Virus record (IMG/VR): IMGVR_UViG_3300044641_005618
From: a virus
Taxonomy: Duplodnaviria > Caudoviricetes
Direction: 5' to 3' (one strand)
Length of the DNA stretch: 64,000 nucleotides
Positions 10,612-33,684 of the stretch are shown here, in pieces. The position numbers and the translations under genes are program-made. Within the stretch, counting starts at the first letter, position 1, and each line of letters opens with the position of its first letter. The notes beneath the pieces were generated by a model that worked only from the letters and a program-made list of their open reading frames with translations, ran no database searches and was not told the origin of the DNA.

Positions 10612-10673
10612 ACTCTCCTTAGGGTTTTTCGACTCTTATTGAAAGTTATACCCTTTGGGACAACGGGGCAGTG

Positions 10674-10949
10674 TTAACTAAAGCCTACTGGCCATATTTG
10701 GCCGGTGGATCTTAGTACAACTTGAAGGGTGGCAACAACAACTGGATCAAATCCGGCTGTTACAAAGTTGATGCCCCCGGCATTTCCGATACTAGGTGTC
10801 ACAGGGTTAACGCCGGTAATTTGTGTGGTAAATCCCGCTGGAGCTACTCTCGATTGTGGGCCAAGATCTCTCAGAGCAATAATTGACCCCGCAAAAGATC
10901 CACTATCCCAAAGTGCTCCCGATATGCTCTGCGCTGTGGTTATTGACAT
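10674..10949 (-). CDS. Small fibre-associated hypothetical protein (91 aa)
   Basis: Start overlaps the upstream stop; Gly/Thr/Ser-rich composition. Confidence 0.65.
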   Translation of the reverse strand: MSITTAQSISGALWDSGSFAGSIIALRDLGPQSRVAPAGFTTQITGVNPVTPSIGNAGGINFVTAGFDPVVVATLQVVLRSTGQIWPVGFS

Positions 10950-11923: not shown

Positions 11924-11928
11924 AATTG

Positions 11929-12861: not shown

Positions 12862-12885
12862 GGGTACTCCCTCGTTCAAGGGAAA

Positions 12886-13368: not shown

Positions 13369-13372
13369 AATT

Positions 13373-13993
13373 TTAGTTGTTAGTTACAATCCAACCGGAG
13401 GAAACGAGAGTAGCTTTTGCCGCTAAACCAGCTGGTCCCGGTGGGGAATTTGTCCCACCGGAAATGTTTATTGAACGATTTCCGGTTGATGAGCCCCGTC
13501 CAGCCGCAATAGCAACAAGAATAGCATCAACTGAGGATTGATTTAAGGCATTATTGTTAAAGTAGTATTGAATGGGGAAGCCAACGGTACTCGTTTTAAT
13601 AATTCCTATTCTCGTGATGGCCGTTAGAAGGGGGCAGTTGGCAATACTTACAACTCCCCCATTAGTTTCAATGTTAAGCCCGTCTATGTTTTCCAATCTT
13701 TCTGCATTAATTATAAATGTAGACTCCGGCGCCGTATAATATGGAGAGTACCAAACATCCACCATTTTAGTCACAAATGACCCGCTTACCGCACCGCCGC
13801 CGCCCAGGGTGAGAATTCTAAATGAGTTAAAAGTTACAGTTCGATAGGGGTCTGGACAAGACACGTTCGGGGTAATATCCGACCCCAGGAAAAGGATGGG
13901 AGGATAAACAGCTGACACCGGGTCGGATGCGTAAATACCGGGATAAGACCCAATATTGCTATCATTACCATAAAATTGTGAAAGTGAAGACAT
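13373..13993 (-). CDS. Fibre-associated protein (206 aa)
   Basis: C-terminal NALNQSSVDAIL...INISGGTN...AKATLVSSGWIV resembles capping segments of phage surface proteins; coupled to the upstream fibre. Confidence 0.5.
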   Translation of the reverse strand: MSSLSQFYGNDSNIGSYPGIYASDPVSAVYPPILFLGSDITPNVSCPDPYRTVTFNSFRILTLGGGGAVSGSFVTKMVDVWYSPYYTAPESTFIINAERLENIDGLNIETNGGVVSIANCPLLTAITRIGIIKTSTVGFPIQYYFNNNALNQSSVDAILVAIAAGRGSSTGNRSINISGGTNSPPGPAGLAAKATLVSSGWIVTNN

Positions 13994-16900
13994 TAGCTAA
14001 GCCTCCAACCGTTTGTAGAGTCAATGTAAGTAAAGGTCATAGCAGCATACTTTTTGTCAAGGGTGAGGTTTTGTGAAAGTCCCATTATGTTTGAGCCGTT
14101 GCGGCCAACTACAGTATTCAACCAAGTGCCAGCAACAACTACAGTCAGGGCGTCTCCAGGGGAGGGTGTTGCTGGTAATGTAATCGTTTTTCCTGAGGCG
14201 GTGACAACCACGTAGTCGGGTACTGAAGCCGTGTAGTTGTCATTAACTACTACAACTGGAATTCCACCGGTTGAAGTCTGAACCCACTGCCTCGATGTTC
14301 CGTCGTTGTACAGAATGAAGAGGGCTCCGGAGTTAGGATTCCAGTACAACGACCCGTCTATTGCCCCCTCGGGGGAACTTCCAATCGAAGGTGCAGTGGT
14401 AAGGGCGGGAACTTTGAGCTTGACTGTCGAGTCCGAGACATCAATACCCAACCCCCCTGTAATATCCGAGGAAATATTCTGGTTGTTGCTCTCGGGGAAG
14501 TAGCTCCCAAGGTCGGCTACACCCAGGGTCTCATTCGTGCTTAAGTCAGTTAACCCTGCAGCAGTTACAAAATAACCTTCCTGATTTGAGCCTGTTGCGT
14601 AAACACGGCCCCCAAGCTGGTTGGTGAAGTAGTAAGTGAACTGGTTTTGAATTGACAAGTCCCCTTGATAAGACGGTAAAGCTTTCGTGTAGTTTAAGAA
14701 ACCCGCCCACTCCCAAGAATGGCCAAACATGCGGACTGTGGATGGCCTACGGAAGTCAATAGACCAGTGTGCCAAGGCATTCGCCACTCCCGACGGCGCA
14801 TACCCTTTCATGTCCTCACTATTTGATGTGTCAAGCTCCCTGTTAGGGGTTGTGGTAGGAGTCAATAAGCTTCTGGCTTGGCTATTAGTAAAGCCGATGC
14901 CAACTAGAAACTGGTAGAGACCACGGTAGTCAGTAGCAGTAGTATACTGGCCCTTAATTGCTTCGTCGTTCGTCCAGCATGTTGTTAAGTTGTATCCACA
15001 ATTCGAAGTTCCGGCTAAACCGTCCGTGTCGTTGTCAAAGACAACTACAGGAGTGGTGTTCAGGAAGAAGTCGTAAGCATTGTAGTCAGACTCCATGTGA
15101 ACGTACGACTCTTTCCACTTCTCGAAGTCGAAAACAGTGTCGAAGTTTTTAAGGACACAACTATAGTGTTTATTCAGGTGGCGTACTGTTTCTCCCTTGC
15201 GGTAGTACTCACCAGGGGTCCAAGTTTTGACTGCGTTGGACCGCTGTAAAACAACTCTGGACTTTTTAGCAACAGCGTCTGAGCCAATTGGAACCAAGTC
15301 CGACTTTTTCACAATAACCAAGTCCGAGTCTGACATGAGGCTTAGAACAGGTCCCCCAGGAGAGGTTTGTAGAACGTAGTCTCTCATCGGAGAGCGAACA
15401 TTCGGGTTCGTGTTTGTGATGTTTACGCTAAACTGCCTCTGGCTCGGGGACCTTGTGTCAACTAGGCGACGAATAAACACTCGACTACCTGAAAGGCTCG
15501 CCTGGTTACCCGTACCCCCAGGCACACCACCGATCTGATTCTGCATTGCAGCAGATATCTTAATTTGCTCGGGGTTTGCAGCATCCCAGGCGCCCGTAGC
15601 TAAAGGTGCTCTCCAGGAAAAACCTCGTGGGTTTTCTATCCAAAGGTAACTTCCAGCTTTGAACGTGTAATTTCTGGAAGCCAGAATTTGAGGCTCTCCT
15701 GAATAAACTTCCGACTCCAAAAGTGGTTTGTCTAGAGTTATAATAGTTGAGTTGTTCACCTGACCGGAAGAGACCTTGCCGATCTCAATGGTTCTGACGA
15801 CAGTTTGCTGATCCGCTAAGTTGGTGGCAACGTTTATGGTTGCAACGTCCCAATTCGTATCTTGAGGAAAAGCCTCAGACTTGTAACCTTCGGCTAAAGC
15901 AGCACAGCCACCGAAGGAACTATTGGAGTTAGTTATTGAGATTTCTCCGCCGCTTTTCACCCAGTGGTGCACACCTTGCCCAATGGCAAACACGGAAACC
16001 TCCTGAACGAACGCGTCGTTAATAGCTCGTATATGGTAGGACCTTCGAGTAGGGTCCATTCTCAGGTTGTTGGGGTCTAGGGTAATATAGGTGTTGTAGT
16101 TGGAAATCGTGTTCCCCCAAACGTTCGTGAAGGCGTTATATCTCTGCCAACAGTACAAGTCTCTCTGCAGGGAAACTCCAGTGAACTGAGATGTTACGAT
16201 GGACTTAAACCCGGTCACATCATTCCCATCCGCGTTTATGCCACAGAGGCCATAGCTGGATCTTATGGAACAGTTAAAAATGTACGGAGAGGAGCCGGTG
16301 ATTCCGTCAGTGGTCTCCTCCGGAATCCCTGAGGGTTGGGGTGCAACAATTTCGGTCTCTCCTGGGTTTGTGATGAGGTTTGGACTGAGTTGAGCGAAAA
16401 TTGTCTGAGCTTTAGCGTAGTACGCAGTTAGGTCAGTGTCGGAGACGAACGAGAAGCAATCGAGCAAGTGGTGGCTAGCCGCTAAACCCAGCTTGTCCTT
16501 GAAAGTAAAGTTGAAGAAGAACCCTCCCCCTGTAACGCGAAGAATCGAACCCCTGTTCGTGTCAATGTTCCCGGTCTTGGCCGGAACATAGTTCGGTCTA
16601 ATTATGGTTTTTCTCAAGTCCGCACCAATAACAGACACCCCTCGGGGAAGTATGACCCCGGCGTAAGAGTTGCTGTTCATCGCACTTAACTGGGACTCCG
16701 TTGGAGTCGTGCCGCTAACCCACGGGCTAACTGTAGCGCTCCCTGGCGTCCCATCAATGATGTGCTCTCCTGCCGAGCATTTTATCACAAAGCGGTCAAA
16801 TGCTAACGGGTTCGGTTGTGTTCCCACCTGGAATCGAGCAACCTCAAGAGCGGCTCTTTGAATTGTCTTGAATGGCTTCTGAGGAGTGTACCCTGACACA

Positions 16901-17481
16901 GCCATCTGATTTGTTACAATCGGTGAAACGGTGTTATCATAAATTCCTGAGACAAAAATGTCACTCCCAATCTGAGGGTTAACGTAAAGGGTGTAAGTCC
17001 CTGTGAGAAGTGCCTGGTTTAAGTCCGGTGGCCCATAAGATGCCGGAACCCAAGAGGTTCCTGTGCAAATGTACAGTCGCTCACTTTCACTGTTCCAGTA
17101 CAGACTTCCGATTGTGGCTTCGTCTTCGTTTGTTCCAATTTCAGGGACATTTTCAACTGTCCCGAAAGGTAGCGAGACTTTTATCGCCGTGCCGACTAAA
17201 TTTAAGCCAAATCCCGGATTCCTAACAACCCACGAAAGCACCCCGTTGGTGCCAACGGTGAGCTGACCACCAACCACCGGGGCAGCGGGCCAAACATACG
17301 AGTTAAAGGCTGTATTGCTGTTAGTTTTAATCACCCCTGACGAGGTCGAAGCATTGAAGGAAATAGTCCCGTCCAGCCCTATTGTTACGCCAGCCCCCTC
17401 CTTAACCCCCTGGGGCTGACCAGATAAAACAGCGCCCTTGCCGCTGTCTCCCATGAGTAGTTGAGCTCTTGTTAATGCCAC
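13993..17481 (-). CDS. Large tail fibre / spike protein (1162 aa)
   Basis: Motifs LYVNP...KPFKTIQRAALE, RGVSVIGADLRKTIIRP, GSSPYIFNCSIRS resemble cyanophage-type fibres; beta-helix-like core. Confidence 0.75.
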   Translation of the reverse strand: MALTRAQLLMGDSGKGAVLSGQPQGVKEGAGVTIGLDGTISFNASTSSGVIKTNSNTAFNSYVWPAAPVVGGQLTVGTNGVLSWVVRNPGFGLNLVGTAIKVSLPFGTVENVPEIGTNEDEATIGSLYWNSESERLYICTGTSWVPASYGPPDLNQALLTGTYTLYVNPQIGSDIFVSGIYDNTVSPIVTNQMAVSGYTPQKPFKTIQRAALEVARFQVGTQPNPLAFDRFVIKCSAGEHIIDGTPGSATVSPWVSGTTPTESQLSAMNSNSYAGVILPRGVSVIGADLRKTIIRPNYVPAKTGNIDTNRGSILRVTGGGFFFNFTFKDKLGLAASHHLLDCFSFVSDTDLTAYYAKAQTIFAQLSPNLITNPGETEIVAPQPSGIPEETTDGITGSSPYIFNCSIRSSYGLCGINADGNDVTGFKSIVTSQFTGVSLQRDLYCWQRYNAFTNVWGNTISNYNTYITLDPNNLRMDPTRRSYHIRAINDAFVQEVSVFAIGQGVHHWVKSGGEISITNSNSSFGGCAALAEGYKSEAFPQDTNWDVATINVATNLADQQTVVRTIEIGKVSSGQVNNSTIITLDKPLLESEVYSGEPQILASRNYTFKAGSYLWIENPRGFSWRAPLATGAWDAANPEQIKISAAMQNQIGGVPGGTGNQASLSGSRVFIRRLVDTRSPSQRQFSVNITNTNPNVRSPMRDYVLQTSPGGPVLSLMSDSDLVIVKKSDLVPIGSDAVAKKSRVVLQRSNAVKTWTPGEYYRKGETVRHLNKHYSCVLKNFDTVFDFEKWKESYVHMESDYNAYDFFLNTTPVVVFDNDTDGLAGTSNCGYNLTTCWTNDEAIKGQYTTATDYRGLYQFLVGIGFTNSQARSLLTPTTTPNRELDTSNSEDMKGYAPSGVANALAHWSIDFRRPSTVRMFGHSWEWAGFLNYTKALPSYQGDLSIQNQFTYYFTNQLGGRVYATGSNQEGYFVTAAGLTDLSTNETLGVADLGSYFPESNNQNISSDITGGLGIDVSDSTVKLKVPALTTAPSIGSSPEGAIDGSLYWNPNSGALFILYNDGTSRQWVQTSTGGIPVVVVNDNYTASVPDYVVVTASGKTITLPATPSPGDALTVVVAGTWLNTVVGRNGSNIMGLSQNLTLDKKYAAMTFTYIDSTNGWRLS

Positions 17482-17518
17482 TGTTCAGAACTAACATATA
17501 TAAAGAGTTTTACCCTAG

Positions 17519-20500
17519 TCATAGCACACCCGTCTCGTTCGCCAGAGATAGGACTATACCCGGCCCCCACCTTAAGAAACTACTCCCGTACTTACCCTGG
17601 TTTGGACAGAAAATAAACTCTGCGTTGGACACTACTCGTAGGTTTGCTACGGTGTTAGGTAGAGGGGCGTCAGTCGGGTCTAAGAAAGTCAAAACAGAAT
17701 TTTCCACAGTGTAGGATACACCAGGTAACTGCAACGCACCACCCAAGCTGAGCATAATATTCTCCGCTGTTACAGCAGAAGCATTCACCACCTTACCTCC
17801 GTACTTTAAGGGGAATGAAGTTCTAGCCCCGTTAAACTCCCCACTAATGTCGTCAAGTGAGTAAACTTCTACAGGGTAAGTCGAACGCAAAGACCAGTAC
17901 GAACCCGAACAAACAGATCTAATGTCTAGGGTAGTTCCTTCGGGGGGAACTCCTGTGAAGGAAAACCGAACAGTTGTTGGAGAGGTCCTCTCAACAGAAT
18001 AAGAGAACGGCAGAGAAGAGTTGACAGCGGACAAGGGTATTTGCTCCACCCCACCCAAAAATACGAACGTGTTGTTGGCGGTGACTTCCAGTGGGGCCAA
18101 TAAGCTTGGGTCTAAGGGAATGGTGGCCGTGAAGTTCGTTCTTGCTCCGTCAAAGGGCTCAACGAAGCTCAAAGACGCAACGGTTAGAGTTCGATTTGAG
18201 TCAACACTGGTTACAACCCGAATATTGCAGGACAAGCCTGCTGGAGGGGATTCTGCGAATTGGATCCTGTTCCCGATCAGAGAGTAGTTCACAAAGGGCT
18301 TTTGTACAGAAGCTCCGAGAGTTACAAATAAGGATTCTGCGGACAGCTGATCTGGCGGTATTGCTAAGCCACTGCGAGTCAAGTCAAAGGTTGAACGGGA
18401 CCCGTTGAGCTCAGGTGAGATGTCGTCGGCAGAGTATACAACAACTTGAGAAGGGAACTCAACGTATGGCTGTTCTTCATATATTTGTTGGTTGCTGGGG
18501 TTAATTGTCGGAGTAGAGTACTCGTAGAAGTTCGCTGTTAGCGCTTGACGCTGTGGGCCAAACTGAACAATTTCCCCCTTATCATTCACTCCCATTACGG
18601 TAAGTCTCCCGCTCCAAGTAGTGGTGGCTTGGTAGTCGGTAGCTAACTTTCGAGTGAAGTCGTTGCTCTGAAACTCGGGGAGTCCTCGAGAGTAGTTATA
18701 GTAACCCGCGTAAGCCCAAGTGTGGGTGTTGGCAGATATAATCGAAGGTTGGTTAAATTCAAGAGGCCATTTATCTACCGTCAATGAGTAACCGTTTGTG
18801 GGAAGATTACCAACGAGGGACATAATTGACATTAGCCGTTCCCCCCAGTACTTTGGAACCAAATAAGGTTTTAGGACCCCCTTTGAATAGCCCATGACTT
18901 CAAAGAAGCGATACATTGCCCTTTTTGTGCTAGTCCAATCGGGGTCGTAAAGCTCAGGCTGAGGGAGTGGATTTGTACTACAAACTGTGACTACAGTCTG
19001 CTGTGGCCAGTTGTTTCCCGGTAGTGTTGTCGGGTAGTAACTGTTCTCATAAGTTAGACGTATTCCTCGAACGACGGTTCCGTTCAAGTTTATGACTCGA
19101 ATGTACTCAACACCAGAAGAAGAACTAAGTCGAATCACCGACGTTGTTTGACGTGGGTTCTCAATATCAACAGACGACAAAACGGAAAATTCCACTATTG
19201 AGGGTCGGTATCTCCGGGGTAGCGGAGTTAAGGTGGCGTCTTGTTTCAATTGCACCTCAGTCAAAGCAGAGACCGTGTAGGTGGCAGCGCCATCAGCTAA
19301 GTCTTTTAGGCACAGTCCAAGACTCTCTGTGCTGTCGTCCCCGTCATAAACACTCTGAGAAGAGTAAGTTGGGTAGGGGTCAGTGGCACCTCTAAAGTAG
19401 CTCTGCTCTGAGTACCCCTCTGTACTCAGGTAGGAGTCGATCGCGTAAGAACCTTGAAAAGTTTCTGAGACCTTTTCTTGTTTTTCCAGGACACTTGTGT
19501 CAACGAACGGTGAGCAGGTCTCGATCGGAGCCACAGAGAAAGGACCAAAGCTGTCCGTGAAACTTGAAGCCTCACCGTAATAAACGCAGTTCCACAGGTT
19601 GTTTTCAGCGGCGTACCAGTTTCTGTTTCTGTATGTCGTGTACGATCCAGACGGAAGGTTGAAATTACTTCCTTGCCCCCAGGGGCGACTGTAGTCGGTC
19701 GCCGTAATTGCCACATAGTAAGTAAGATCTTGGTTACTATCCCCAATGACGTAATTAAACTGAGGGGAAGACCCTTGTCCACCCGTCTCCATGGCGTCAA
19801 CTGTGAAGAGTCTCCCCCAACCCCCCAGGACCCCTGGGTCGAATTGAACATTCGGTCTTAGCGAAATTGAACCCTGTTGTTGGCTGGTTTGGTTTAGTCT
19901 TAGTACGGATCCTATTTGTGGGGCAATAGCGTTCGGTAGGGTGTTTCTTATAAACAGACTGTACGATCTTTCAAAGTCTTGTCTTGGGTCAGTAAACCTT
20001 CGAATATAGGGGACACCAAGAATTGGTAGTAGACTCTCATCATTCGGTATCGTACTGTCTGATGACCTTAAGCGGAGTTTAGCGAAGTTTACGGGGTCCC
20101 CAAGGCCAGTAATAACCGTTGGCCCCCCGTCTGCGGCAAAAAATCCGCGGTAGGTGCAGGACTCAGTTTCAACCCAAAGTGCTGTCCCTGGCCCTAAGGA
20201 GTAAGGAAGTAAGTGACAAGGGGAAAAGTCTGAGCTCAGCTCTAGTATTTGCGTGTTCGGGTCCTCGGGGTCGATATAAATCGCCTTAATCTTTCCCCCA
20301 AGGGAAAGTATTCTCTTGTTGTCTGGGTTCTCTACCTGAGACTTAAGCAGGGCCAGTGGCCTTTGAACGCCCTCAAGAACGAATCCCTTTCCGTTAGGCT
20401 TCGCACCGCCTATTGTGTTAATTCCAAGGAAACCCTCAGACTTAAACGCAACCGATCCGAAGTTTGTCGTGCTATTTGTTAGGCTGCAGGTTCCGCCGTT

Positions 20501-22291
20501 TAGTGCCCAAACCCCAATCGCAGGGCCGATACTATACACAGATTGAAACTGCCCGTGAGCCCCATTCCTGACGCGGAACCCGAAGTGTCGAAAGTCCCTT
20601 TCGATGTCTACAATTCCTATGCTTTGGCCGCCTGGCTCCGTGAGGCTCTTGTAGTAATACCGTATGTTATTTACGGGAGTGGAGTTTAACAAGGAAAGTT
20701 GATCCTTCACTGTAACGTCGGACAGCGAAGAAGGGCGAAGCTCCACTGGAGTCGATAGAAACTTCGCTTCAGTCAAATTCCACCACTTTTGCTCTGGTAG
20801 CTTCGTGGCCGGGTTTACGAGGGTTGTGTAAATTTCGTACACGCACGGGTCGTTCTGTAAAGAAACCGCTGTGCAAGAGACTGCGACTACCGACTTAAAC
20901 CCGGAAACAGACGCCCCGTCGAAATCCCCCCAGTTCATGCCATAGTCGGATCTGAGAACAACGTCTTTTGCGTAAAACGGCGAGTTTCTCGTGGTGTTTG
21001 AATCCTCGTTGTTAGGGTAGGCCCCAACTGGGGCTACGATTGTATAGTCCCCGCTATCTACTAGGGACATGCCCTTTGTGACTTTCCCGCCAAAGAAGTC
21101 AGGAAATGCCTTCTGAACTTTCGTGAAGTACTCACCAATCTCAAATAAAGTTGCGTTTTCGAACACCTTGAGCCTGTGAGCAGACTTTAGAGTGTTTTCC
21201 ACTAAAAACTTCGGCGTTGTCTTATCACTGAATGTCGGTAAAGAGGAGAAAGGTACGTACTCCGCAGCGGGAGTCTCTGTTTGAGACCCGAAAGATAAGT
21301 AAAAGCGGTCAGTATCAATGGGGACAACATAGTAGTTCCCTGCGGTGAATGTCCCTGTGCTCTGATCCACAGTCGGCTCGAAACTTACGGACGCGACATC
21401 ATTGAATAAGTGTCCGTGCGGTCTTTCGGAAATAAAAACGGCTAGTCCGTTTTCTTCTGTAATTGAAATAACAGTTCTCGATGACAATTTGTCAACTACG
21501 GAGAAGGACTCAGCTACAGAATTTCCTACGCATTTGAAAATTGAGCTTAAGGGTTGGTCAATTCCTCGATAAGCTGCAGGAAATGCCGGGTTGAAATATG
21601 ACGGAACAAATGCCGGGGAAACAACGCACTTTTTTAGATCGAGCCCTATAATAGAGATGCCGAAGGGGACAATTATCCCTCCACTTAGTGGGTTGAACTG
21701 CTGGAGTTGCGCAGTTGTAACTTTGTCGCCTGAAGAAGAGAAATTTACAGTGAAGTCATCGAGGCTAACGCCGGGGCCATTGTTGGCTGTTATGAGAGAG
21801 GAGGAGAGAAGGATCGTATAGCGATTGCTTTCGTTCGAAGTGGGGAAACCAGCTAAAACGCGGCTTATGTATATCTTCGAAAGCTCAAGTATTGCTCGGG
21901 ATAAAGTCTGAAAGGGCAAGGCTTGCCCGTCGTTTCGAAGAGAATCCGTTGAGTACTTAAACTCAGGCGCAACAAACACTATGCTCCCCCCGCCACCGAG
22001 GAAAGGAGCGGACACCGTGCGCCATTGACTCGTTGCGTCTCCTACATTGAGTGTGCCGTCCTCGGTGTCGAACCACAACTCTCCCTTTTCCGGGAGGTTC
22101 GTAGGAGGAAGGGGCAGCACTGAGGGGGGCCCAACTTTAATTACTTGACCGTCAGTGACTGAGAAGAAAAGCCCTGGTTCTTCGCTGTTTGTGTTTAAGC
22201 CGATTTCACCTGGCGGAAGGTGAGACGCACTCGGCCTCTTTCCGGCGATTGAGGAGCGCTTCAGAACTATTCGTTTGGCTTTGGCTGACAT
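17519..22291 (-). CDS. Large tail fibre protein (1590 aa), paralogue of 13993..17481
   Basis: Shared core (PFQTLSRAILE, GISIIGLDLKK, GFKSVVA, HTWAYAGY); N-terminal IVLKRSS...KRP domain; C-terminal DDIS..FNG.R..F.L repeats. Confidence 0.75.
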   Translation of the reverse strand: MSAKAKRIVLKRSSIAGKRPSASHLPPGEIGLNTNSEEPGLFFSVTDGQVIKVGPPSVLPLPPTNLPEKGELWFDTEDGTLNVGDATSQWRTVSAPFLGGGGSIVFVAPEFKYSTDSLRNDGQALPFQTLSRAILELSKIYISRVLAGFPTSNESNRYTILLSSSLITANNGPGVSLDDFTVNFSSSGDKVTTAQLQQFNPLSGGIIVPFGISIIGLDLKKCVVSPAFVPSYFNPAFPAAYRGIDQPLSSIFKCVGNSVAESFSVVDKLSSRTVISITEENGLAVFISERPHGHLFNDVASVSFEPTVDQSTGTFTAGNYYVVPIDTDRFYLSFGSQTETPAAEYVPFSSLPTFSDKTTPKFLVENTLKSAHRLKVFENATLFEIGEYFTKVQKAFPDFFGGKVTKGMSLVDSGDYTIVAPVGAYPNNEDSNTTRNSPFYAKDVVLRSDYGMNWGDFDGASVSGFKSVVAVSCTAVSLQNDPCVYEIYTTLVNPATKLPEQKWWNLTEAKFLSTPVELRPSSLSDVTVKDQLSLLNSTPVNNIRYYYKSLTEPGGQSIGIVDIERDFRHFGFRVRNGAHGQFQSVYSIGPAIGVWALNGGTCSLTNSTTNFGSVAFKSEGFLGINTIGGAKPNGKGFVLEGVQRPLALLKSQVENPDNKRILSLGGKIKAIYIDPEDPNTQILELSSDFSPCHLLPYSLGPGTALWVETESCTYRGFFAADGGPTVITGLGDPVNFAKLRLRSSDSTIPNDESLLPILGVPYIRRFTDPRQDFERSYSLFIRNTLPNAIAPQIGSVLRLNQTSQQQGSISLRPNVQFDPGVLGGWGRLFTVDAMETGGQGSSPQFNYVIGDSNQDLTYYVAITATDYSRPWGQGSNFNLPSGSYTTYRNRNWYAAENNLWNCVYYGEASSFTDSFGPFSVAPIETCSPFVDTSVLEKQEKVSETFQGSYAIDSYLSTEGYSEQSYFRGATDPYPTYSSQSVYDGDDSTESLGLCLKDLADGAATYTVSALTEVQLKQDATLTPLPRRYRPSIVEFSVLSSVDIENPRQTTSVIRLSSSSGVEYIRVINLNGTVVRGIRLTYENSYYPTTLPGNNWPQQTVVTVCSTNPLPQPELYDPDWTSTKRAMYRFFEVMGYSKGVLKPYLVPKYWGERLMSIMSLVGNLPTNGYSLTVDKWPLEFNQPSIISANTHTWAYAGYYNYSRGLPEFQSNDFTRKLATDYQATTTWSGRLTVMGVNDKGEIVQFGPQRQALTANFYEYSTPTINPSNQQIYEEQPYVEFPSQVVVYSADDISPELNGSRSTFDLTRSGLAIPPDQLSAESLFVTLGASVQKPFVNYSLIGNRIQFAESPPAGLSCNIRVVTSVDSNRTLTVASLSFVEPFDGARTNFTATIPLDPSLLAPLEVTANNTFVFLGGVEQIPLSAVNSSLPFSYSVERTSPTTVRFSFTGVPPEGTTLDIRSVCSGSYWSLRSTYPVEVYSLDDISGEFNGARTSFPLKYGGKVVNASAVTAENIMLSLGGALQLPGVSYTVENSVLTFLDPTDAPLPNTVANLRVVSNAEFIFCPNQGKYGSSFLRWGPGIVLSLANETGVL

Positions 22292-22341: not shown

Positions 22342-22503
22342 TCAAATGTACCTCGCTGCCTCTTTCGCCTCAGAGCTCACTCCGCGTTTCCCAAGCTCCA
22401 TTGCCGTGTTAAGAATTTCCCGAGCGCGACTTCTTTCGCGTGGGTTTCCCCTCACCCTCTTGTAGAGGGACATTAAGTCCAGGTACTTTTGATCCTTTTC
22501 CAT
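22342..22503 (-). CDS. Small kinase-associated protein (53 aa), not in ORF track
   Basis: Hand translation MEKDQKYLDLMSLYKRVRGNPRERSRAREILNTAMELGKRGVSSEAKEAARYI*. Start overlaps the kinase stop (TAATG). Paralogous to 24805..24957. Confidence 0.75.
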   Translation of the reverse strand: MEKDQKYLDLMSLYKRVRGNPRERSRAREILNTAMELGKRGVSSEAKEAARYI

Positions 22504-23771
22504 TAACTAACCCCTTCGTATAGTATGGAAATAAGCCTTGCAGCGTCGTCCTTGCCGATCTTACCCCAAGCACCTTTGTTGTAAGAGCTGAGTGGTTGGT
22601 CTAAACTGTGGGTCACCACCTCAGCAATATCGTCTTTGTTAAGACCAAGCTTTTCCATCTCGGTGTAAACTTTGATTCGGTTTCGTATAATCTTCCCGAG
22701 GTTTGTTTGGGGGGTAGTACCCTTCGAAGTAGCTGTAGCGGATGGTGGCAAGTAAAACTGCTTGTTGTCTCGTGCCTGGAAATCCCCTGAGTTTTCATTG
22801 AGTGGCTTTCTGAGCATTGCACCAGGGGGTAGTAAGTACCTCACCGATAAAACTCCAATGGCCTCTGAGAGAGCTGCACGAGGGTCATCCTGTGAAACAC
22901 CGAAGTCAACAAAACGTGCTTTCCCCTTGTCATCGATAATTACGTTTCCTACGTGGGCGTCATTATGGGCAACACCTTGCTCATGGAGTTTCTTTCGTAG
23001 GGCGTAGTAAGAGTCGCCCACAGTTGTGTTTCCAACTGGGCTTTCGTAAGAGTCAAAGTCTTCAGCTGACTTACCCTTTACACGGGACATTGCTATTCTT
23101 CCAGGGTAGTACCCAGCGTTGTTGAACTCAGCAGACTTATTCATCTCAGCCGAGATTAGCTTGGGGGTTATATCCTTTCCACTTAATTTCTCAAGAATTC
23201 TCACTTCATTTTCCCCCACCTCCCCTCTTTTCACGACTACGGACGGGGGTGGTTTGGATGCAATTACCGCTCCGTACAATCCTGATCCTAGCCCTTTTGA
23301 CCCCGACTCGTACGACTGTTTCCAGTCGTAGCTACCACCTAACTTTAGGGTTGGTGTGAACTCGGTGTCGAATTCGAGTGCGTTTTGGCGTTCTTGAATA
23401 GCTGGGCGGTCCGCCCTGGTGTGCTTAACCCATGTGTCAAAGAGTGCCTTTTCAACTTTCGTAGCCCTGTCTATCTCCTCGTCCGTCATATACTCTTTGT
23501 TACGTAGCTCAGCAAGCTGGCGCTCTGCCTCCCGCTTTAACGAGGGGAAGTCACTACTGGCATTGACCGTTGCCTTCGGGCCTAAGGCTAGGGCATCAAT
23601 AAGGTCCTTGACCAAGGGGTTTGTCTCGCCATTCTTAGCAACTTTGCCTGCTAAGGACCCCTGTAAGTTTTCTACTTGGTGGGATAGTTTAGGGGTCAAG
23701 GAGGCTCTGCACTTAGCCTCGCGGCTAATGCAGGTACCTCCACAGCTCTTCCCCTTAGTGCAGCGCTTCAT
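22503..23771 (-). CDS. Ser/Thr protein kinase-like protein with N-terminal Cys motif
   Basis: Gly loop GLGSGLYG, VVVK, ENE, catalytic HNDAHVGN, VDFG; N-terminus KRCTKGKSCGGTCI. Confidence 0.85.
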   Translation of the reverse strand: MKRCTKGKSCGGTCISREAKCRASLTPKLSHQVENLQGSLAGKVAKNGETNPLVKDLIDALALGPKATVNASSDFPSLKREAERQLAELRNKEYMTDEEIDRATKVEKALFDTWVKHTRADRPAIQERQNALEFDTEFTPTLKLGGSYDWKQSYESGSKGLGSGLYGAVIASKPPPSVVVKRGEVGENEVRILEKLSGKDITPKLISAEMNKSAEFNNAGYYPGRIAMSRVKGKSAEDFDSYESPVGNTTVGDSYYALRKKLHEQGVAHNDAHVGNVIIDDKGKARFVDFGVSQDDPRAALSEAIGVLSVRYLLPPGAMLRKPLNENSGDFQARDNKQFYLPPSATATSKGTTPQTNLGKIIRNRIKVYTEMEKLGLNKDDIAEVVTHSLDQPLSSYNKGAWGKIGKDDAARLISILYEGVS

Positions 23772-24223
23772 TTTCTATTAGCGACTTCACCTGGTTCTTT
23801 GAAGTTATGTAGCAGTTCTTGTAAGCGATCGATACGGGTACTCATAGAGTCAATCCGCTCTGAGTAGGAAGTCTCCATACCGGCAGCGATATTGTGGTCG
23901 TCATTGTTCTTTCGAGCCAGGTCAAGCGTTGCCATTTTGCCGTCAATTTCCTCGCGCTCTTTCACAAGTTTCTTTGTCGCAGCCATCTGCCTTTGAAGTT
24001 CTTGAAACGCTCCACGCTGTCGAGAGAGCTTCATGGCAAAGCCCAAGTCAGCAATTGCTCTCGATATCGCTTCGTGCCGCTCGCCCATAGCGTCGTACTC
24101 CCCGAAGCTGGGGCGGAGAGTCGAGGTGGCTGAGGGTTCCATCACAGTTCCTCGGTAGTAATCCGTCGGAGTGTGGGAGAAACCTTCAAGCTGAAGTTCA
24201 TTCTCGGGGAAGTTAGGATTCAT
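23768..24223 (-). CDS. Hypothetical coiled-coil protein (151 aa)
   Basis: ORF with GGGTAAA at 24265-24271. Confidence 0.7.
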   Translation of the reverse strand: MNPNFPENELQLEGFSHTPTDYYRGTVMEPSATSTLRPSFGEYDAMGERHEAISRAIADLGFAMKLSRQRGAFQELQRQMAATKKLVKEREEIDGKMATLDLARKNNDDHNIAAGMETSYSERIDSMSTRIDRLQELLHNFKEPGEVANRK

Positions 24224-24286
24224 GGGTTCCCTTCTTGAGAAAAGAGATTCTTGTTGTACATAACTTTACCCTTCACTACTGTGGGT

Positions 24287-24808
24287 CTAACCGCCGAGCT
24301 GACGAATTTGACTCTGTATGGCCTGGCGCCCACTCTCGGTGGTTTGACTCGCTAAGGCTTTCTTAAGCCCTTCTACCCTGTTCGTTTGAACTGCGGAGGA
24401 CTGCGACTGGGTCGGCTGCTTTGCGAACGGCACTTTTTGCTTCGGGCCCACCTTTGCCTCTCCTGCAACAGACCCCCAGGCTACGATTACTGGCTTGCCT
24501 CCCTTGATGGCCCAGCCGAACTTCTTCCCCTCAACCGTAAAAGCCTTTTTATTGGCTGCGGACGCTTGCTCTTTTGTTGACGCCCCGGCACCTTGTTTCT
24601 GAGCTTCGTTGCTTAGCTGCTCTTCTTGCTTGCTTCTTTTCGACGTGTCGAAATCTTTCCCCCCGGTCCCCCCAACTTTCCTGCACACACCGTATACCAT
24701 CTTCTCATCGGATTCACACGCCGCAAAGTCCCAGTCGATAATTGTGTAGTGGACACCTTCGATTGAGTGATCAACTGAAGGGAAGTTAAAATTGTTCATG
24801 GGTGTCAC
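24287..24808 (-). CDS. Hypothetical basic protein (173 aa)
   Basis: Contains DFAAC...YGVCRK, a weak relative of the Cys module in neighbouring genes. Confidence 0.7.
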   Translation of the reverse strand: MTPMNNFNFPSVDHSIEGVHYTIIDWDFAACESDEKMVYGVCRKVGGTGGKDFDTSKRSKQEEQLSNEAQKQGAGASTKEQASAANKKAFTVEGKKFGWAIKGGKPVIVAWGSVAGEAKVGPKQKVPFAKQPTQSQSSAVQTNRVEGLKKALASQTTESGRQAIQSQIRQLGG

Positions 24809-24957
24809 AGGTAGGCGGCGGCTTTAAACTCTTCTTCAGATACTGTTCCGGATTTAGCTAGTTTTTGCATAGCTTTGAAAATCACAGATGCTTCCTTCTC
24901 CTCGCCTTGAAAGAGTGCGTGTTTTCGGTAAGAGGCGAGTTTAACATAGATGCTCAT
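24805..24957 (-). CDS. Small kinase-associated protein (50 aa), not in ORF track
   Basis: Hand translation MSIYVKLASYRKHALFQGEEKEASVIFKAMQKLAKSGTVSEEEFKAAAYL*. Start overlaps the kinase stop (ATGA). Confidence 0.75.
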   Translation of the reverse strand: MSIYVKLASYRKHALFQGEEKEASVIFKAMQKLAKSGTVSEEEFKAAAYL

Positions 24958-25841
24958 AGAATTCCCTCGTAAAGGGATTTGAGAAACTCCTTGACTTCGG
25001 AGTTTGAAAGATTCCTAATCGCCGGAGGTAGATCCGCTTCTTTGGTTCGTATTTCTACAGAATCATTCGAGTCGAACTTCAAGTTCGACACAACTTTACC
25101 CCAGTTCTCTTGAAATTTTCTGTATAGAACACTTCCCTGGCCGTCGTCTTCACCGAAAGCGGTTCTCGAGGAAGAGTCTTTGTTGGTAAGTAAGGCCTCC
25201 ACTAAAGCGTGACGGCTACCAATTTGAGATAGACCGAAATCTACGAACATAGTTCTCTTGGTTTTCGGGTCATAGAATACGTTTCCGTCGTGAGTATCGT
25301 TATGAGCTATTCCCGCCAAATGCATTCGAGCTCTTGCTCTCATCATGGAATCAATTTGCTCAACCTTTTGTTCCTTAGACAGGGACTGAGAAGATAGGGG
25401 CTTTCCTTTCGCTTCTTTCATTTGAATCATTCCGTCTCCCGAGGTGACATGCCCCCCAAATATAATTCTATTCACTAATTTCTCGTTTTTTAAGGGTGTA
25501 ACAGAAACTAAAGATGGGGCCAATCCTGTCCCACTTAAACGAGTTAGAGCTTCAGCTTCATGTTGACCTATTTTTCCTTTCTTAATAACTGTAGGAGGTG
25601 GACCCGCGTTCAAACGAACCTCCCCCATGTCCCCTTTTCCAAACGCTTCCCCCTCGTCAAACGCTTTCTGTATACTCCTTTTTTCGTTTTCTTGGCCCAC
25701 TTCAACCCCTTTTCTGCACCGTCCGGCTGTGCCGTAGTGCGTGCCGTCCAACCTTTCACAACGTGTGAAATCGTGAACCCCGGTGAGGAGTTCCCTCACC
25801 CTTTGAACAGAGTTATCTGTAAAGTAACCGAGTTTGCTCAT
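24954..25841 (-). CDS. Second Ser/Thr protein kinase-like protein
   Basis: FGKGDMG, TVIK, QHE, HNDTHDGN, VDFG; N-terminal DFTRCERLDGTHYGTAGRCRKG module. Start placed at ATG 25841. Confidence 0.85.
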   Translation of the reverse strand: MSKLGYFTDNSVQRVRELLTGVHDFTRCERLDGTHYGTAGRCRKGVEVGQENEKRSIQKAFDEGEAFGKGDMGEVRLNAGPPPTVIKKGKIGQHEAEALTRLSGTGLAPSLVSVTPLKNEKLVNRIIFGGHVTSGDGMIQMKEAKGKPLSSQSLSKEQKVEQIDSMMRARARMHLAGIAHNDTHDGNVFYDPKTKRTMFVDFGLSQIGSRHALVEALLTNKDSSSRTAFGEDDGQGSVLYRKFQENWGKVVSNLKFDSNDSVEIRTKEADLPPAIRNLSNSEVKEFLKSLYEGIL

Positions 25842-25851
25842 GAGATTGAAA

Positions 25852-26193
25852 TTACCATTTCTCACGGTCTGACCAATACGCAGCAGAAGACTTCCCCTTC
25901 GCAATATTAGCAGCATGCCTCGCCTTAAACGACTGCCGTCTGGCCTTGTAAGACTCTGACTCTCCCTCTTTCTTCGGTGACCCCTTCACACCTTGCTGCC
26001 CGAATCGAATCAGCTTGCCCCCTTTGGGTGCACCGGGATAGCACGACTTTACAATATGGGAGCTTGTTGGGTGACTCGGAGTGGCGTGAGGGTCGTTACA
26101 GTCAAGAGAGCTTTTGTCTACCTTTTCCGCATACTTTTCCAGTGCAGCCTCTCGAAAAGAAGCGTAGGACGAATTGTCAAATGATCCCCACAT
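25852..26193 (-). CDS. Basic phage protein of unknown function
   Basis: C-terminal KLIRFGQQGVKGSPKK...ARRQSFKARH...SAAYWS...W resembles a recurrent phage family. Start placed at MWGSFD. Confidence 0.65.
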   Translation of the reverse strand: MWGSFDNSSYASFREAALEKYAEKVDKSSLDCNDPHATPSHPTSSHIVKSCYPGAPKGGKLIRFGQQGVKGSPKKEGESESYKARRQSFKARHAANIAKGKSSAAYWSDREKW

Positions 26194-26197
26194 TGTC

Positions 26198-26572
26198 TCA
26201 ATCTTCGTATTGCAACGCGTCGGCAACCGAGGTCATGCTGTTCTCAGCCTCAGCCAACTTTGCCGCCATCCACGGACTCAGATTCGTGTAAGGCCCAACC
26301 AGTTCCAGTATAGTTTCAATATTGTCCCTCATAGATCGCAACTGAGAAATGGCCATGCTGCCGTTCGGTTCGACTTCCCTGTCGTCTTCGGCAGCGTCTT
26401 CGTAGTCGGAGTCGTAGTCATCCTCGTCGTCCTCACCCATAAAGAAGGTGTCAGGGTCCCTCCCTGGCTCTTTCTCGAATGCTGGAGCAACTCCCATGAA
26501 GTTGCTGGGGTTTTCAACCCCGTACTTGTAAGCGCTGTAAGCTTCCGGTGAAAAGGATCCCCAGTGACTCAT
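26198..26572 (-). CDS. Hypothetical acidic protein (124 aa)
   Basis: N-terminal WGSF...Y motif shared with 25852; GGGTAAA at 26598-26604. Confidence 0.7.
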   Translation of the reverse strand: MSHWGSFSPEAYSAYKYGVENPSNFMGVAPAFEKEPGRDPDTFFMGEDDEDDYDSDYEDAAEDDREVEPNGSMAISQLRSMRDNIETILELVGPYTNLSPWMAAKLAEAENSMTSVADALQYED

Positions 26573-28197: not shown

Positions 28198-28878
28198 TTA
28201 CCCTTTCAAGGACAGCAAAACCGAGAGAAGAGAAAGATCTCCGAGAAGTTTAGCTGAGGTTGCTTGAGAGGTTTGCTCAGAAAAGGATGCCTCAGAACCT
28301 CTAAATAACTTCTGAAGCCTTAAAAGGTCGGCGCTGTACTTTCGTGATATGGCGCCCGAAATTTGGGCCACTTTGGGAAGTTTTGACCCTACAAACGCAG
28401 CACCAACTCCAGTGAACTTTCCTGCAAGTAGGGGCAGAGCTTGATGGATAATCTCACGACTTTCCTGGCTGGTTAGAAAACTGTCCACGCCCGCGTGGGC
28501 ACTTTTTCCCAGGAACGCGGCAGAAGCTTCTGTGAGCAGGTCCCTTACAAAGTCCTCACCCGACCTTAAATGGCGAGAGTGAAGTCCCGTGGCAACCACC
28601 GCTTGAACAATTGTTTCCGACAACTTTTCTGTGGTTTCCGGGGGTATGCCGTAGCGAGTTTCCAGGTACTTTGATACCAAGGGTCCAACAACTTTCCCCG
28701 CTTTCCACGACGTTACGTTGGCCCCAACATGCTCTCCAAGGTGCAACAACCTCTCGCTGTTACGCGAGAGACTGTCGCTCACTGGCGCCGGCAACTTTTT
28801 CTCGCACTTAAAATCCTTGCTTATGCAAGTCGCTGAGCAAGACTTTCCTGCTGTGCATTTTTTCCTAGGATTGCCCAC
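28198..28878 (-). CDS. Hypothetical protein with N-terminal KKC..GKSC..TCI motif (226 aa)
   Basis: Same Cys motif as the kinase at 22503. Confidence 0.7.
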   Translation of the reverse strand: MGNPRKKCTAGKSCSATCISKDFKCEKKLPAPVSDSLSRNSERLLHLGEHVGANVTSWKAGKVVGPLVSKYLETRYGIPPETTEKLSETIVQAVVATGLHSRHLRSGEDFVRDLLTEASAAFLGKSAHAGVDSFLTSQESREIIHQALPLLAGKFTGVGAAFVGSKLPKVAQISGAISRKYSADLLRLQKLFRGSEASFSEQTSQATSAKLLGDLSLLSVLLSLKG

Positions 28879-30358: not shown

Positions 30359-30943
30359 TCAATCTTCTGTGTCTACTCCGGGAATTTCTCCTCTGAACAT
30401 CATATCGTCGTCTGTTTGCCTTGCCCAGTAACTCTCTTTCAGGTCTGAAACTGAGGGAAGGCCTCTTTTCGGTATGTTAAAGTCTTTTAAGGCTTCTACC
30501 ACTTCTTTAGCAATTCCTTGTCTCTGCGATTTAGTTAATTCACTGGGCCATAACTCATCTTTTCGAATTTCTTTAACAATAGATTCAACGGTTAAATTAA
30601 CCTTGGCTTTAACCATAGACGGGGTTGTAACCTTGCCCCCACTTCTTTGAGCTGTGGCTTTCTTTTCTACCGGTTGTTTGGCTTCTTCAGTACCCTTCTT
30701 ACACTTCCCTCGGGTGCCATAGGCCGAGCCGTCGGCTCGGACACACCGTGTAAAGTCAAAAGAGCCAAGGAGTGTGTTCACAGCTTCTTCAATGAATGGG
30801 TATTTGTTCCCGTAATTTTCAGAGAAGGACAAACCTTCGGATGCTAACGCATCCGCTTCATTGCGGAGTTCTAAAGCTTCGCCTAAGTTACCTTTCAGTG
30901 CTTCTGAGAGGGCTTCGAGGTAACAGTGGTCGAGTTTGTTCAT
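30359..30943 (-). CDS. Hypothetical protein with duplicated leader and DFTRC module
   Basis: MNKLDHCYLEALSEAL... leader identical to 38289..38900, then DFTRCVRADGSAYGTRGKCKKG. Confidence 0.75.
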   Translation of the reverse strand: MNKLDHCYLEALSEALKGNLGEALELRNEADALASEGLSFSENYGNKYPFIEEAVNTLLGSFDFTRCVRADGSAYGTRGKCKKGTEEAKQPVEKKATAQRSGGKVTTPSMVKAKVNLTVESIVKEIRKDELWPSELTKSQRQGIAKEVVEALKDFNIPKRGLPSVSDLKESYWARQTDDDMMFRGEIPGVDTED

Positions 30944-30944
30944 G
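30774..30944. repeat. 171-bp exact repeat, copy 1
   Basis: Identical to 38731..38901 by direct comparison. Confidence 0.95.
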
Positions 30945-31000
30945 GTTGACAATCAGAAAGTTGCGGGAGAGTTTCACCCCCATCTTTTTATTTTACCCTT

Positions 31001-32229: not shown

Positions 32230-33651
32230 TTAAACAGCAGGTGGAAGCAGTTCCATGAAACTAACCAAAATAGCATCCATTATATCTGAGTACGATCCAA
32301 TGCACTCCCAACTTTTAAACAACACGTTGTGTATATCTGAGTTGGATGCTACTTTCCCCGACTTTACCATTAGATTGATCGCAAGTGCCTTAGCCACCAC
32401 TCTCTCCTTGCTCACTCGAACAGGTAAACCTAGCTTCTCTAGGTACTGTCTCCAGTGCTTACTCGCCCAGGACGACTCGATAACAACTTCTGTCACGCCG
32501 TATGCTTTGGCAGCCAGAGAAACAATTACGCCAACAGTCTCCAAGTCCCAATTCGCCTGGTACGCGTCGAGAACGTACACACAGTCCTTTTCCTTCGTGG
32601 ATCCAGCCACACAAATCCCAGTCATATCCGCGTTGCCTGGCGAGCAAGAGGGGTCAATAGATATAATAACCTTGTCCAGGTGTGGGATCTCAGAGCAGAC
32701 TCCGAACCCAGTGTTGGACACCCCTTTGTACAACCACGAGAACTTTACATCTCCGATTGTTTTCCGTAAGTCCTGTAGATTCTTCGGGCTAAATGTGGGG
32801 TTTCGGAAGGAAAGAGCGTCATTGATACCCTGCCCAACTTTCCTACCTAGAATATCAACCTTGGCTTCTTCTTCGCTCTCAATGATGGCGGATAAGTTAA
32901 TGTGAACGGCTCCGTTCGGGTTTGAGACTGGGTCAAAGACACCGTACTTTTCCAGAAAGTAGCTGAAAATATCCCCCTCACCTCTTCGAGACCCGAGAAC
33001 AACTGTGGCCCTATTCGCTACTCCCAGGGTTCCAATTTGCTCCACCCATTCACTATTAACACCATTACCCATATACTTATGGTAGTCATCGATCAACCAA
33101 ACTCCGGCCCCTCTGAATCCCCCGTAGGCGAGACCGCACACAGAACTCCCAGGAGCAGACGGCGAAACATGGTGCGGTTCCAACTGAACTTTCGAAAAAA
33201 TCCCTCCAGAGGAAGGAGTACTAATCAGTTCCTTCACCCTACTTGCTGCAAATCTGGATGCACTTTGGTCGTAAGAAGTTACGACATGACTAACAGTAGA
33301 GTCTTTCCTTAAGAGCCAGGACAATAAGTGAACCCCCAGAGTGGTTTTTCCTGATCGTGGTGGCATTGACACGAGGAGAATTGGGTACCTTCCTTCGGCG
33401 ATGTCCTCAAAGGCGGACCCTATCACTTCGTACGCTTTTGTATCGAGCGGTGCGTTTTCGAGTGCGAAACCTCCTGCACCGGACACAAGATCGCAGAAAG
33501 CAAGAAAGCTACTTTTCGCACTTTCCTTAGCGAACGCTTCTTGAGGTAACCCCTCAAGTTTCAGCTCAAGGAGTTTTCGTCGGTAGCTCCTCCAGCTTGA
33601 GTGCTCTGCTAGCTGAGAAGCGTGCGTTATTTTTTGGTGTTTAAGTGACAT
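32230..33651 (-). CDS. Terminase large subunit paralogue (divergent second copy)
   Basis: Walker A MPPRSGKT, Walker B WLIDD, nuclease SIDPS...ADMTGICV...SDIMDA; N-terminus homologous to 33685..35448. Confidence 0.8.
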   Translation of the reverse strand: MSLKHQKITHASQLAEHSSWRSYRRKLLELKLEGLPQEAFAKESAKSSFLAFCDLVSGAGGFALENAPLDTKAYEVIGSAFEDIAEGRYPILLVSMPPRSGKTTLGVHLLSWLLRKDSTVSHVVTSYDQSASRFAASRVKELISTPSSGGIFSKVQLEPHHVSPSAPGSSVCGLAYGGFRGAGVWLIDDYHKYMGNGVNSEWVEQIGTLGVANRATVVLGSRRGEGDIFSYFLEKYGVFDPVSNPNGAVHINLSAIIESEEEAKVDILGRKVGQGINDALSFRNPTFSPKNLQDLRKTIGDVKFSWLYKGVSNTGFGVCSEIPHLDKVIISIDPSCSPGNADMTGICVAGSTKEKDCVYVLDAYQANWDLETVGVIVSLAAKAYGVTEVVIESSWASKHWRQYLEKLGLPVRVSKERVVAKALAINLMVKSGKVASNSDIHNVLFKSWECIGSYSDIMDAILVSFMELLPPAV

Positions 33652-33684
33652 CTTGTGGTTGTGTTTGTGTTGTCTTGGATTGAG

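Follow-up and report, generated by a model that had tools for sequence, protein, structure and literature searches.

Locus organization

The two gene modules described here lie in a stretch of viral DNA of 64,000 nucleotides (nt) (IMG/VR record IMGVR_UViG_3300044641_005618; Duplodnaviria, Caudoviricetes), which is referred to at its full length as the window and which derives from a large lake cyanophage that is not T4-like. Each module consists of a kinase gene and, directly downstream of it, a gene of around 50 codons encoding a small partner protein. All of these genes are located on the minus strand. Kinase 1 (22503..23771; 422 amino acids, aa) is followed by small 1 (22342..22503; 53 aa, of the subtype YK..R), and kinase 2 (24954..25841; 295 aa) is followed by small 2 (24805..24957; 50 aa, of the subtype RK.ALF.G.E). 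An earlier note on this DNA had described both small open reading frames (ORFs) as overlapping the end of the kinase gene, and the junctions bear this out: the stop and start codons are fused as TAATG in the first pair (1-nt overlap) and as ATGA in the second (4-nt overlap).

The region is transcribed in the order of a 124-aa ORF (25852..26226), kinase 2, small 2, a 173-aa ORF, a 151-aa ORF, kinase 1, small 1 and a gene for a 1590-aa tail-fibre-like protein. According to PHROG matches, it is flanked by terminase genes (32230..35448) on one side and tail-fibre genes (9322..22291) on the other. Because the pairs are situated between these two groups, the structural or late-gene context proposed for them in the earlier note is reasonable. 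The mechanically called ORF of kinase 2 extends to 25916. The start at 25841 is preferred because it is supported by the orthologue on L005, a 52-kb contig of a distant relative, in which the called gene encodes 293 aa and lies at an identical 10-nt gap from the upstream gene, as well as by the remnant left in G001, a relative with 93% identity.

The family of small partner proteins

Both small ORFs are, judged by their sequences, real genes of one family that had no earlier name. The two proteins had been reported to align with each other, and this holds for their homology, although the direct similarity is weaker than was implied. BLASTP returns no alignment between them, and their Smith-Waterman score of 39 is equalled by 8 of 5000 shuffles, which by itself is suggestive. 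Their homology is secure because they are joined by an intermediate and by the family profile: L005 holds both pairs, and its small 1 (8285-8443) bridges the two small types. A six-member profile, the kind of search suggested at the outset, recovered 117 cluster representatives at E <= 0.001 from 1.84 billion proteins. Nearly all of these are 44-89 aa long, and the match reaches the C-terminal residue in every case. The two window ORFs match the profile, which contains both of them, at E ~1e-25 to 1e-30, and independent members from other loci match it at 1e-13 to 1e-22.

The resulting family is a three-helix domain of ~50 aa with the pattern Y..LM..[YR]K ... A ... L...G.VS ... Y[LIM]-COOH, to which both window ORFs conform. 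Across 120 representatives, the helix-1 Lys is conserved in 96%, the Gly in 96% and the following Val-Ser in 93% and 88%, respectively; the penultimate residue is Tyr in 109 representatives and the last one is Leu, Ile, Met or Val in 107. Purifying selection is indicated by dN/dS values of 0.12-0.25 for small 1 and 0.11 for small 2, and both are present as predicted proteins in public collections. The AlphaFold2 (AF2) model of small 2 (predicted local distance difference test, pLDDT, 95.3) contains helices at residues 3-16, 20-35 and 41-49 and ends with AAYL.

The family has no model in Pfam, PHROGs or NCBIfam. Foldseek finds no significant relative of the fold in the PDB, and in the ESM Atlas it gives sub-threshold TPR-like leads only, which were not used. 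Neither a DNA-binding domain nor a HipS-like fold was detected in the partner. The word-indexed protein search with the small proteins returned close copies only, and no member came up when 185,579 genomes of bacteria and archaea were scanned with a single sub-alignment pattern, a method of limited sensitivity. Among isolated phages, tblastn with a short-form partner gave nothing, and tblastn with a long-form partner reached cluster-C T4-like cyanophages only.

Linkage and co-divergence of the pairs

The distribution of the pairs was followed in two separate locus searches, one with the kinase alignment over viral contigs and one with sub-alignments of the small proteins. A single-protein scan of the viral contigs with kinase 2 gave no match; the kinase alignment retrieved 36 loci. 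In L012-L044, with the exception of L038, a small member overlaps the stop codon of the family kinase (by 1, 4 or 11 nt) or follows it after a gap of 20-57 nt, and the kinases range in size from 295 to 1462 aa. In the search with the small proteins, a family kinase is located directly upstream in 27 of 27 viral loci, including a second pair in L069. In total, around 40 viral loci contain the small gene directly downstream of a family kinase, so that the co-occurrence which the earlier note wished to see checked is found well beyond the window. Across these loci, the pairing is near-obligate.

The pairs also diverge together. A 98%-complete relative of 277 kb encodes three kinases and three partners, with one partner adjoining each kinase. 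The distances among kinases and those among partners are correlated with a Mantel r of 0.85, a value reached by 0 of 5000 permutations. This correlation, together with the coexistence of paralogous pairs in one genome, means that the pairs were duplicated and diverged as units, which agrees with the duplicated module originally proposed. Fusion of kinase and partner by a programmed frameshift was weighed as well, and was dismissed because the relative frame of the two genes differs between loci (overlaps of 1, 4 and 11 nt; gaps of 14-57 nt). Three candidate loci, L045-L047, were also discarded, as they contain other kinase types with partial matches only. No partner was found for the kinases gp161 and gp162 of phage S-CBWM1.

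Sequence and fold of the kinases

Kinase 1 and kinase 2 are paralogues, with 36% identity over 165 aa (E 2e-22). Kinase 1 is composed of an N-terminal Cys4 module (23697..23771, minus strand; C..GKSCGG.C......C), a linker and a RIO/Bud32-like atypical kinase domain (residues ~150-422) ending in ...LYEGVS. In kinase 2, a disordered N-terminal tag of ~60 aa (25662..25841, minus strand; DFTRC.R.DG..YGT.G.C.KG) precedes the kinase domain (~62-295), which ends in ...LYEGIL. The catalytic residues noticed at first reading (Gly loop, beta3 Lys, alphaC Glu, HxDxxxxN and DFG) are all in place: kinase 2 has G68/G70/G73 in the Gly loop, K87, E95, H180-N-D182...N187 and D201-F-G203, and kinase 1 has K181, E189, H269-N-D271...N276 and D289-F-G291. 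In an alignment of 23 relatives, G70, K87, E95, H180, D182, N187, D201 and G203 (kinase 2 numbering) are invariant, and the motifs GDWQ, GIR and the C-terminal end LYEG[IV] are specific to the family.

The general kinase profiles recognize these proteins at or below their cut-offs. In both kinases, the Pfam matches are confined to the catalytic loop. Those of kinase 1 reach 24.3 bits for APH, just above the cut-off of 23.2, 22.9 bits for ABC1, equal to the cut-off, and 22.2 bits for Pkinase. The gathering threshold of Pkinase (PF00069), 31.7 bits, is reached by neither kinase 1 nor kinase 2 (21.1 bits); it is cleared by the relatives L037 and L078. A RIO1 profile match was found in L037 alone (28.1 bits), and with the NCBIfam Bud32 model TIGR03724, whose cut-off is 125 bits, the kinase reaches 35.5 bits, which does not make it a member. 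No HipA family is among the Pfam matches of the kinases at E <= 1 or among their NCBIfam matches.

The AF2 model of kinase 2 has a mean pLDDT of 81.6, with values >90 over most of the kinase domain and disorder in the first ~50 residues. It adopts the bilobal kinase fold, for which Foldseek finds CK2, GSK3 and PKR as matches (E ~1e-7). The nearest folds according to VIA-align are Rio2 (Z 13.3), Rio1 (12.2), WaaP (12.1), Bud32 (11.2) and OspG (11.0), with root-mean-square deviations of 3.4-5.5 A over 148-194 residues. With their catalytic motifs and bilobal fold, the window kinases are members of the kinase-like superfamily (the Pkinase/APH/ABC1/RIO clan). In the model, the RIO/Bud32 likeness of kinase 2 is real but not exclusive. 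The minimal kinases of the RIO, Bud32, Kdo/WaaP and OspG/NleH types are the best structural matches, yet their profile scores are weak and far below the cut-offs, and the window family has the LYEG[IV] end, GDWQ and GIR instead. The window kinases are therefore treated as a separate family within the superfamily.

The conserved end of the kinases coincides with a signal at the nucleotide level. The codons for the terminal ...YEG[IV] are ...TA[CT] GA[GC] GG. (window 22503-22520 and 24954-24975, and other junctions), and they create a GAGG-like Shine-Dalgarno motif 7-10 nt upstream of the partner start codon; the ribosome-binding site of the partner and the conserved amino-acid motif may constrain one another. 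A further variation in architecture is present in L037 (1837-6222), where a 1462-aa protein contains two kinase domains, an OspG-like one at residues ~473-538 and a C-terminal family kinase, with the small partner 57 nt downstream.

Predicted complex of kinase and partner

The earlier note left open whether the small proteins are inhibitors or substrates of the kinases and suggested modelling of the complex. Kinase 2 and small 2 were predicted together, each with its own family alignment, and reached ipSAE values of 0.91, 0.91 and 0.90 in three runs, against 0.01 for the best of three controls. The mark applied to this score is reached by 58 of 80 solved complexes and by 2 of 110 mismatched pairs, a calibration which is only rough here given the custom alignments. 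At least 95% of the contacts are common to the three runs, and the pLDDT of the partner is at least 91. Such agreement supports, rather than shows, binding of the partner to kinase 2.

In the model, the partner is placed in the catalytic cleft. The predicted interface on kinase 2 includes the Gly loop (67-75), V85, K87 and the hinge (144-151) and, further along the chain, D182, H184, G186, N187, F189, V200, D201, G203, L204 and R265. The last seven residues of the partner are modelled in the nucleotide site, where Y49 contacts V75, V85, K87, A144, V200 and D201, residues that in kinases line the adenine pocket. From helix 1, K12, L15 and F16 contact D182, G203, L204 and R265 in the predicted pose and lie across the catalytic Asp and the beginning of the activation segment, after DFG. 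The partner residues closest to D182 in this pose are Lys, Leu and Phe, none of which bears a hydroxyl, and the partner Ser touches the hinge residues 150-151. The model puts into the active site the Lys and the C-terminal Tyr, the surface features that are best conserved across the family, so the conservation fits the pose. Since both ATP and substrate would be excluded by such an arrangement, the model points to an inhibitor rather than to an activator or a substrate.

Association of related kinases with virions

Delivery of the kinases in the virion was also suggested in the earlier note, and it finds support in two groups of relatives. The first is known from metagenomic contigs (L078-L080), where the gene order is portal, a 739-aa fusion of a MuF domain with a kinase, and the partner, with a TGATG overlap. 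The N-terminal MuF domain (PF04233) scores 35.7 bits against a cut-off of 29.6, and the C-terminal kinase part matches the family hidden Markov model at E 1e-36 and ends in LYDGI. Proteins fused to MuF are considered to be effectors carried in the capsid (PMC5512222), and the gene downstream of a MuF toxin is usually a small one presumed to confer immunity (PMC5576092).

The second group is formed by T4-like cyanophage isolates, among them S-CRM01, S-CREM2, S-H34 and S-B68, in which a homologous kinase is followed by a member of the partner family. The kinases share 26-30% identity with the window kinase over the catalytic core (tblastn), and the partner genes are annotated in the phage records merely as hypothetical. 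Virion association of these homologues has been shown by proteomics: in S-CREM2 virions, the kinase ORF14 was detected by 21 unique peptides and ORF13 by a single one (PMC10665884). ORF13 is a member of the small-partner family. Kinases are also reported for virions of S-CRM01, S-TIM5 and S-CBWM1 in the same publication (PMC10665884).

A possible route of entry into these virions is suggested by the N-termini. The T4 capsid-targeting sequence (CTS) is a leader of 10 residues that is hydrophobic at positions 4 and 7 and has L/I-x-E at 8-10, after which the prohead protease cuts (PMC9026906). The T4-like cyanophage kinases and the long-form partners start with a leader MK.L..F[LI].E that matches these rules, and among the long-form partners it is found in 24 of 39 representatives versus 1 of 2000 shuffles. 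Since a T4-like partner with its own CTS-like leader also yielded a virion peptide, it is probably co-packaged with the kinase in these relatives, and not left behind. The restraint of the kinase during assembly, as it was first imagined, is supported by the cleft model, which favours an inhibitor, with the caveat that in the T4-like phages the partner would travel with its kinase.

The genes beside the pair in L085 (S-CREM2), L049 (S-CRM01), L086 and L087 have CTS-like leaders or an internal L/I-x-E close to the N-terminus. They include an S-CREM2 protein annotated as a CRISPR-associated endonuclease, and several were detected in the S-CREM2 virion proteome. This suggests that the T4-like neighbourhood of the pair is a cluster of internal-protein genes.

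In the window, the partners have no leader, their conserved domain beginning at the start of the protein, and the kinases carry other tags, which are not of the T4 type. These tags are shared with further genes of the window. The kinase 2 tag also heads the ORFs 30359..30952 and 38289..38936 (jackhmmer within the window, E 2e-23 and 2e-20), and the Cys4 module of kinase 1 is common to the ORF 28198..28878 (jackhmmer, E 1.5e-17) and to kinases of L005, L036 and L038. The C-terminal domains of the tag- and Cys4-sharing window ORFs are unrelated. A comparison of window 24761-25845 with G001 (L004, 9082-9249 and 7188-8030) reveals the kinase 2/small 2 pair as an indel, absent from this relative. 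A 280-aa ORF with a kinase 2-type tag and a different C-terminal part is inserted in G001 between kinase 1 and the 151-aa ORF. From the tagged 280-aa ORF and the absence of the kinase 2 pair, tagged cargo genes seem to be gained and lost as cassettes.

Proposed mechanism and alternative explanations

The reading preferred here, to which a probability of roughly 0.55 is assigned, is that each pair consists of a packaged effector kinase and its cognate active-site inhibitor. According to this proposal, a catalytically intact atypical kinase would be made late, beside head and tail genes, and would probably be loaded into the capsid in order to act in the next host. The partner would be produced by translational coupling in an amount roughly equal to that of the kinase. 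The three-helix protein would then sit in the catalytic cleft, with the helix-1 Lys over the catalytic Asp and the C-terminal Tyr-Leu/Ile in the adenine pocket. ATP and substrate would be kept out, and the kinase would remain silent in the producing cell and, where the partner is co-packaged, in the capsid. Release may occur upon ejection, by unfolding, by dilution to a few molecules per cell or by loss of the partner.

A broader version of the proposal is more speculative, and the balance of judgement tilts somewhat against it as a whole. In this version, the partners would be a new class of folded, genetically encoded inhibitors of the ATP site of kinases, and cyanophages would load effector kinases that are competent but locked. 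The lock, the C-terminal Tyr in the adenine pocket, would open only on ejection and dilution in the next host, and paralogous pairs within one genome would be mutually specific, allowing the kinases to be controlled independently.

Several observations weigh against the inhibitor reading. The predicted binding and pose are model output, obtained from the kinase 2/small 2 pair alone. The fold of kinase 2 is equally near to small-molecule kinases (WaaP, APH) and to protein kinases. PF04233 (MuF) was not found in the window kinases by Pfam search, and their packaging is suggested by their relatives and by the shared tags. If the partner is co-packaged, the simple model in which immunity stays behind fails, and the release step is unexplained. 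The linkage has exceptions as well: L038 contains a family kinase that has no partner, and orphan partners are found in L036 (at 1964), P0112 and P0096. P0112 is a marine member located downstream of a non-kinase gene, and the L036 orphan follows a 290-aa fusion at a syntenic site from which the kinase is missing.

Among the other explanations, an obligate structural or packaging subunit, such as a chaperone or an adaptor escorting the kinase into the prohead, or else an activator, is unlikely, though the most probable of them; cleft occupancy would then be incidental or an artefact. Rio, Bud32 and OspG, the nearest folds, are minimal kinases that work with partners, the T4-like partner with its own CTS-like leader and single S-CREM2 virion peptide travels with the kinase, and a stoichiometric complex is consistent with translational coupling. 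On the other hand, the modelled interface takes in the Gly loop, the beta3 Lys and the catalytic and DFG Asp residues, with the invariant C-terminal Tyr occupying the adenine pocket, and a kinase bound in this way could not be active. The T4-like kinases also bear CTS-like leaders of their own, so an adaptor would not be needed, and the window partners carry no tag. Rather improbable is a role of the partner in superinfection immunity, in which it would mainly neutralize kinases ejected by related phages that infect later. The layout is that of a MuF toxin with a downstream small ORF, for which such a function has been proposed (PMC5576092), the L036 orphan at a syntenic site resembles orphan immunity genes, and the kinase 2 pair varies as an indel between close relatives. 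The strict 1:1 coupling to its own kinase and the overlapping stop and start codons suggest self-directed control instead. The binding mechanism would be the same as that of a cognate inhibitor, and the two are compatible.

It is more improbable still that the partner is a substrate of the kinase or a phospho-regulated switch. The idea draws on the conservation of two possible acceptors, the Ser of G.VS (88%) and the C-terminal Tyr (93%), and on the predicted contact with the catalytic loop; in the same model, however, the Tyr lies in the adenine pocket (K87, V85, A144, V200, D201), away from the acceptor site, the Ser is at the hinge (150-151), and the Lys, Leu and Phe nearest to D182 offer no hydroxyl. 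As for the small ORFs being chance open frames or untranslated spacers, the only points found in favour are that they are small and that BLASTP does not align the two copies, and the probability is negligible in view of the 117 representatives at E <= 0.001, dN/dS of 0.11-0.25, pLDDT of 95, the conserved position of the start at the kinase stop codon and the peptide of the S-CREM2 homologue in the virion proteome (PMC10665884).

Comparison with known systems

By analogy, the pair resembles an effector-immunity or a toxin-antitoxin pair, and some of the relatives occupy the architecture of MuF toxins. In L078-L080, as in MuF polymorphic toxins, a portal-adjacent MuF protein carries a C-terminal domain, here a kinase, and the partner gene comes directly after it. 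The shared logic is that of a capsid-borne effector with a cognate small protein, and a small ORF overlapping or closely following the effector gene is found in the window and in ~40 loci. The differences are that the window kinases use other N-terminal tags in place of a MuF domain, that MuF toxins are known from temperate phages whereas the phages of the window type look like lytic cyanophages, and that the small-partner family is unrelated to the known immunity families. The word 'kinase' is absent from the main text of the description of these toxins (PMC5576092).

The kinases described as 'PKN8' or 'APH/ChoK-like' in S-CRM01 (g130), S-CREM2 (ORF14), S-H34 and S-B68 (PMC10665884) are homologous to the window kinases, and each is followed by a partner of the family. 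They differ in their length of 650-820 aa and in their T4-CTS-like leaders, and the phage of the window has up to three pairs per genome. The pairing of kinase and partner is not mentioned in the S-CREM2 paper (PMC10665884), and the literature search found no paper that mentions it. With a partner family that lacks described relatives, this agrees with the initial impression that the module is not a described system. In T4 itself, internal proteins and Alt are non-structural proteins which are loaded into the prohead by means of a leader and then ejected into the host (PMC9026906). Such leaders are shared by the T4-like kinase and partner relatives, whereas the window kinases bear longer, Cys-containing tags with a putative role of this kind.

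The HipA/HipT and T7 gp0.7 kinases, with which the earlier note had compared the window kinases, are useful as analogies, but not as homologues. HipS silences the Ser/Thr kinase HipT by inserting a Trp at or near the active site (PMC10627512). The likeness lies in a small protein that brings a bulky aromatic residue into the active site of a kinase, which is a precedent for plugging. HipS and HipT, the latter a kinase of the HipA type, have no relation in sequence or fold to the window pairs. The HipBST toxin-antitoxin system is encoded on the chromosome, is autoregulated and includes the DNA-binding protein HipB; its HipS resembles the N-subdomain of HipA (PMC10627512). A DNA-binding, HipB-like component was not seen at the window pairs.

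A closer geometric analogy to the modelled pose of the Tyr than HipS-HipT is p27Kip1-CDK2, which, like PKI with PKA, is a case of a protein inhibitor occupying the catalytic cleft, with a Tyr of p27 in the adenine pocket of CDK2. Both inhibitors come from eukaryotes, have no sequence relation to the window partner and are intrinsically disordered; the window partner is predicted to be a folded three-helix mini-protein. T7 gp0.7 is a phage protein kinase and an early gene product, which is thought to remodel the host early in infection; to our knowledge, it is not virion-borne and has no known cognate inhibitor. No similarity to gp0.7 turned up, and no dedicated comparison was made.

Kinases have been reported repeatedly in cyanophage virions, and the literature found does not address how an active, host-directed kinase is tolerated during assembly. 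A dedicated, stoichiometric plug of the active site would, if true, explain such tolerance. The partners form a previously unannotated protein family of ~120 clusters, with copies in the isolated phages S-CRM01 and S-CREM2. The effector-plus-immunity logic of MuF toxins would be extended from temperate phages to large cyanophages of the lytic type. If the predicted pose is right, the partner would also be a compact natural scaffold for the inhibition of RIO/Bud32-like kinases.

Further observations at related loci

The loci which depart from the usual pairing contain some additional features. In L038 (2392-3222), the partnerless kinase is followed by two paralogous ORFs of ~120 aa that share MPPLTIRKPETL...GRFYRLF..NGKR.AK. 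The 290-aa protein of L036 (1071-2128), at the syntenic site, is a fusion of a tag with a domain homologous to the window ORF 25852..26226 (phrog_7595). P0096 (L081, 277-585) is a 102-aa protein composed of two tandem copies of the small-partner domain; it is encoded on a 2.5-kb contig on which no family kinase was found, and the 276 nt upstream of it contain no ORF. In the window, the adjacent ORFs 32230-33651 and 33685-35448 each match PHROGs of the terminase large subunit (E 2e-18 and 2e-82), and are therefore tandem TerL paralogues.

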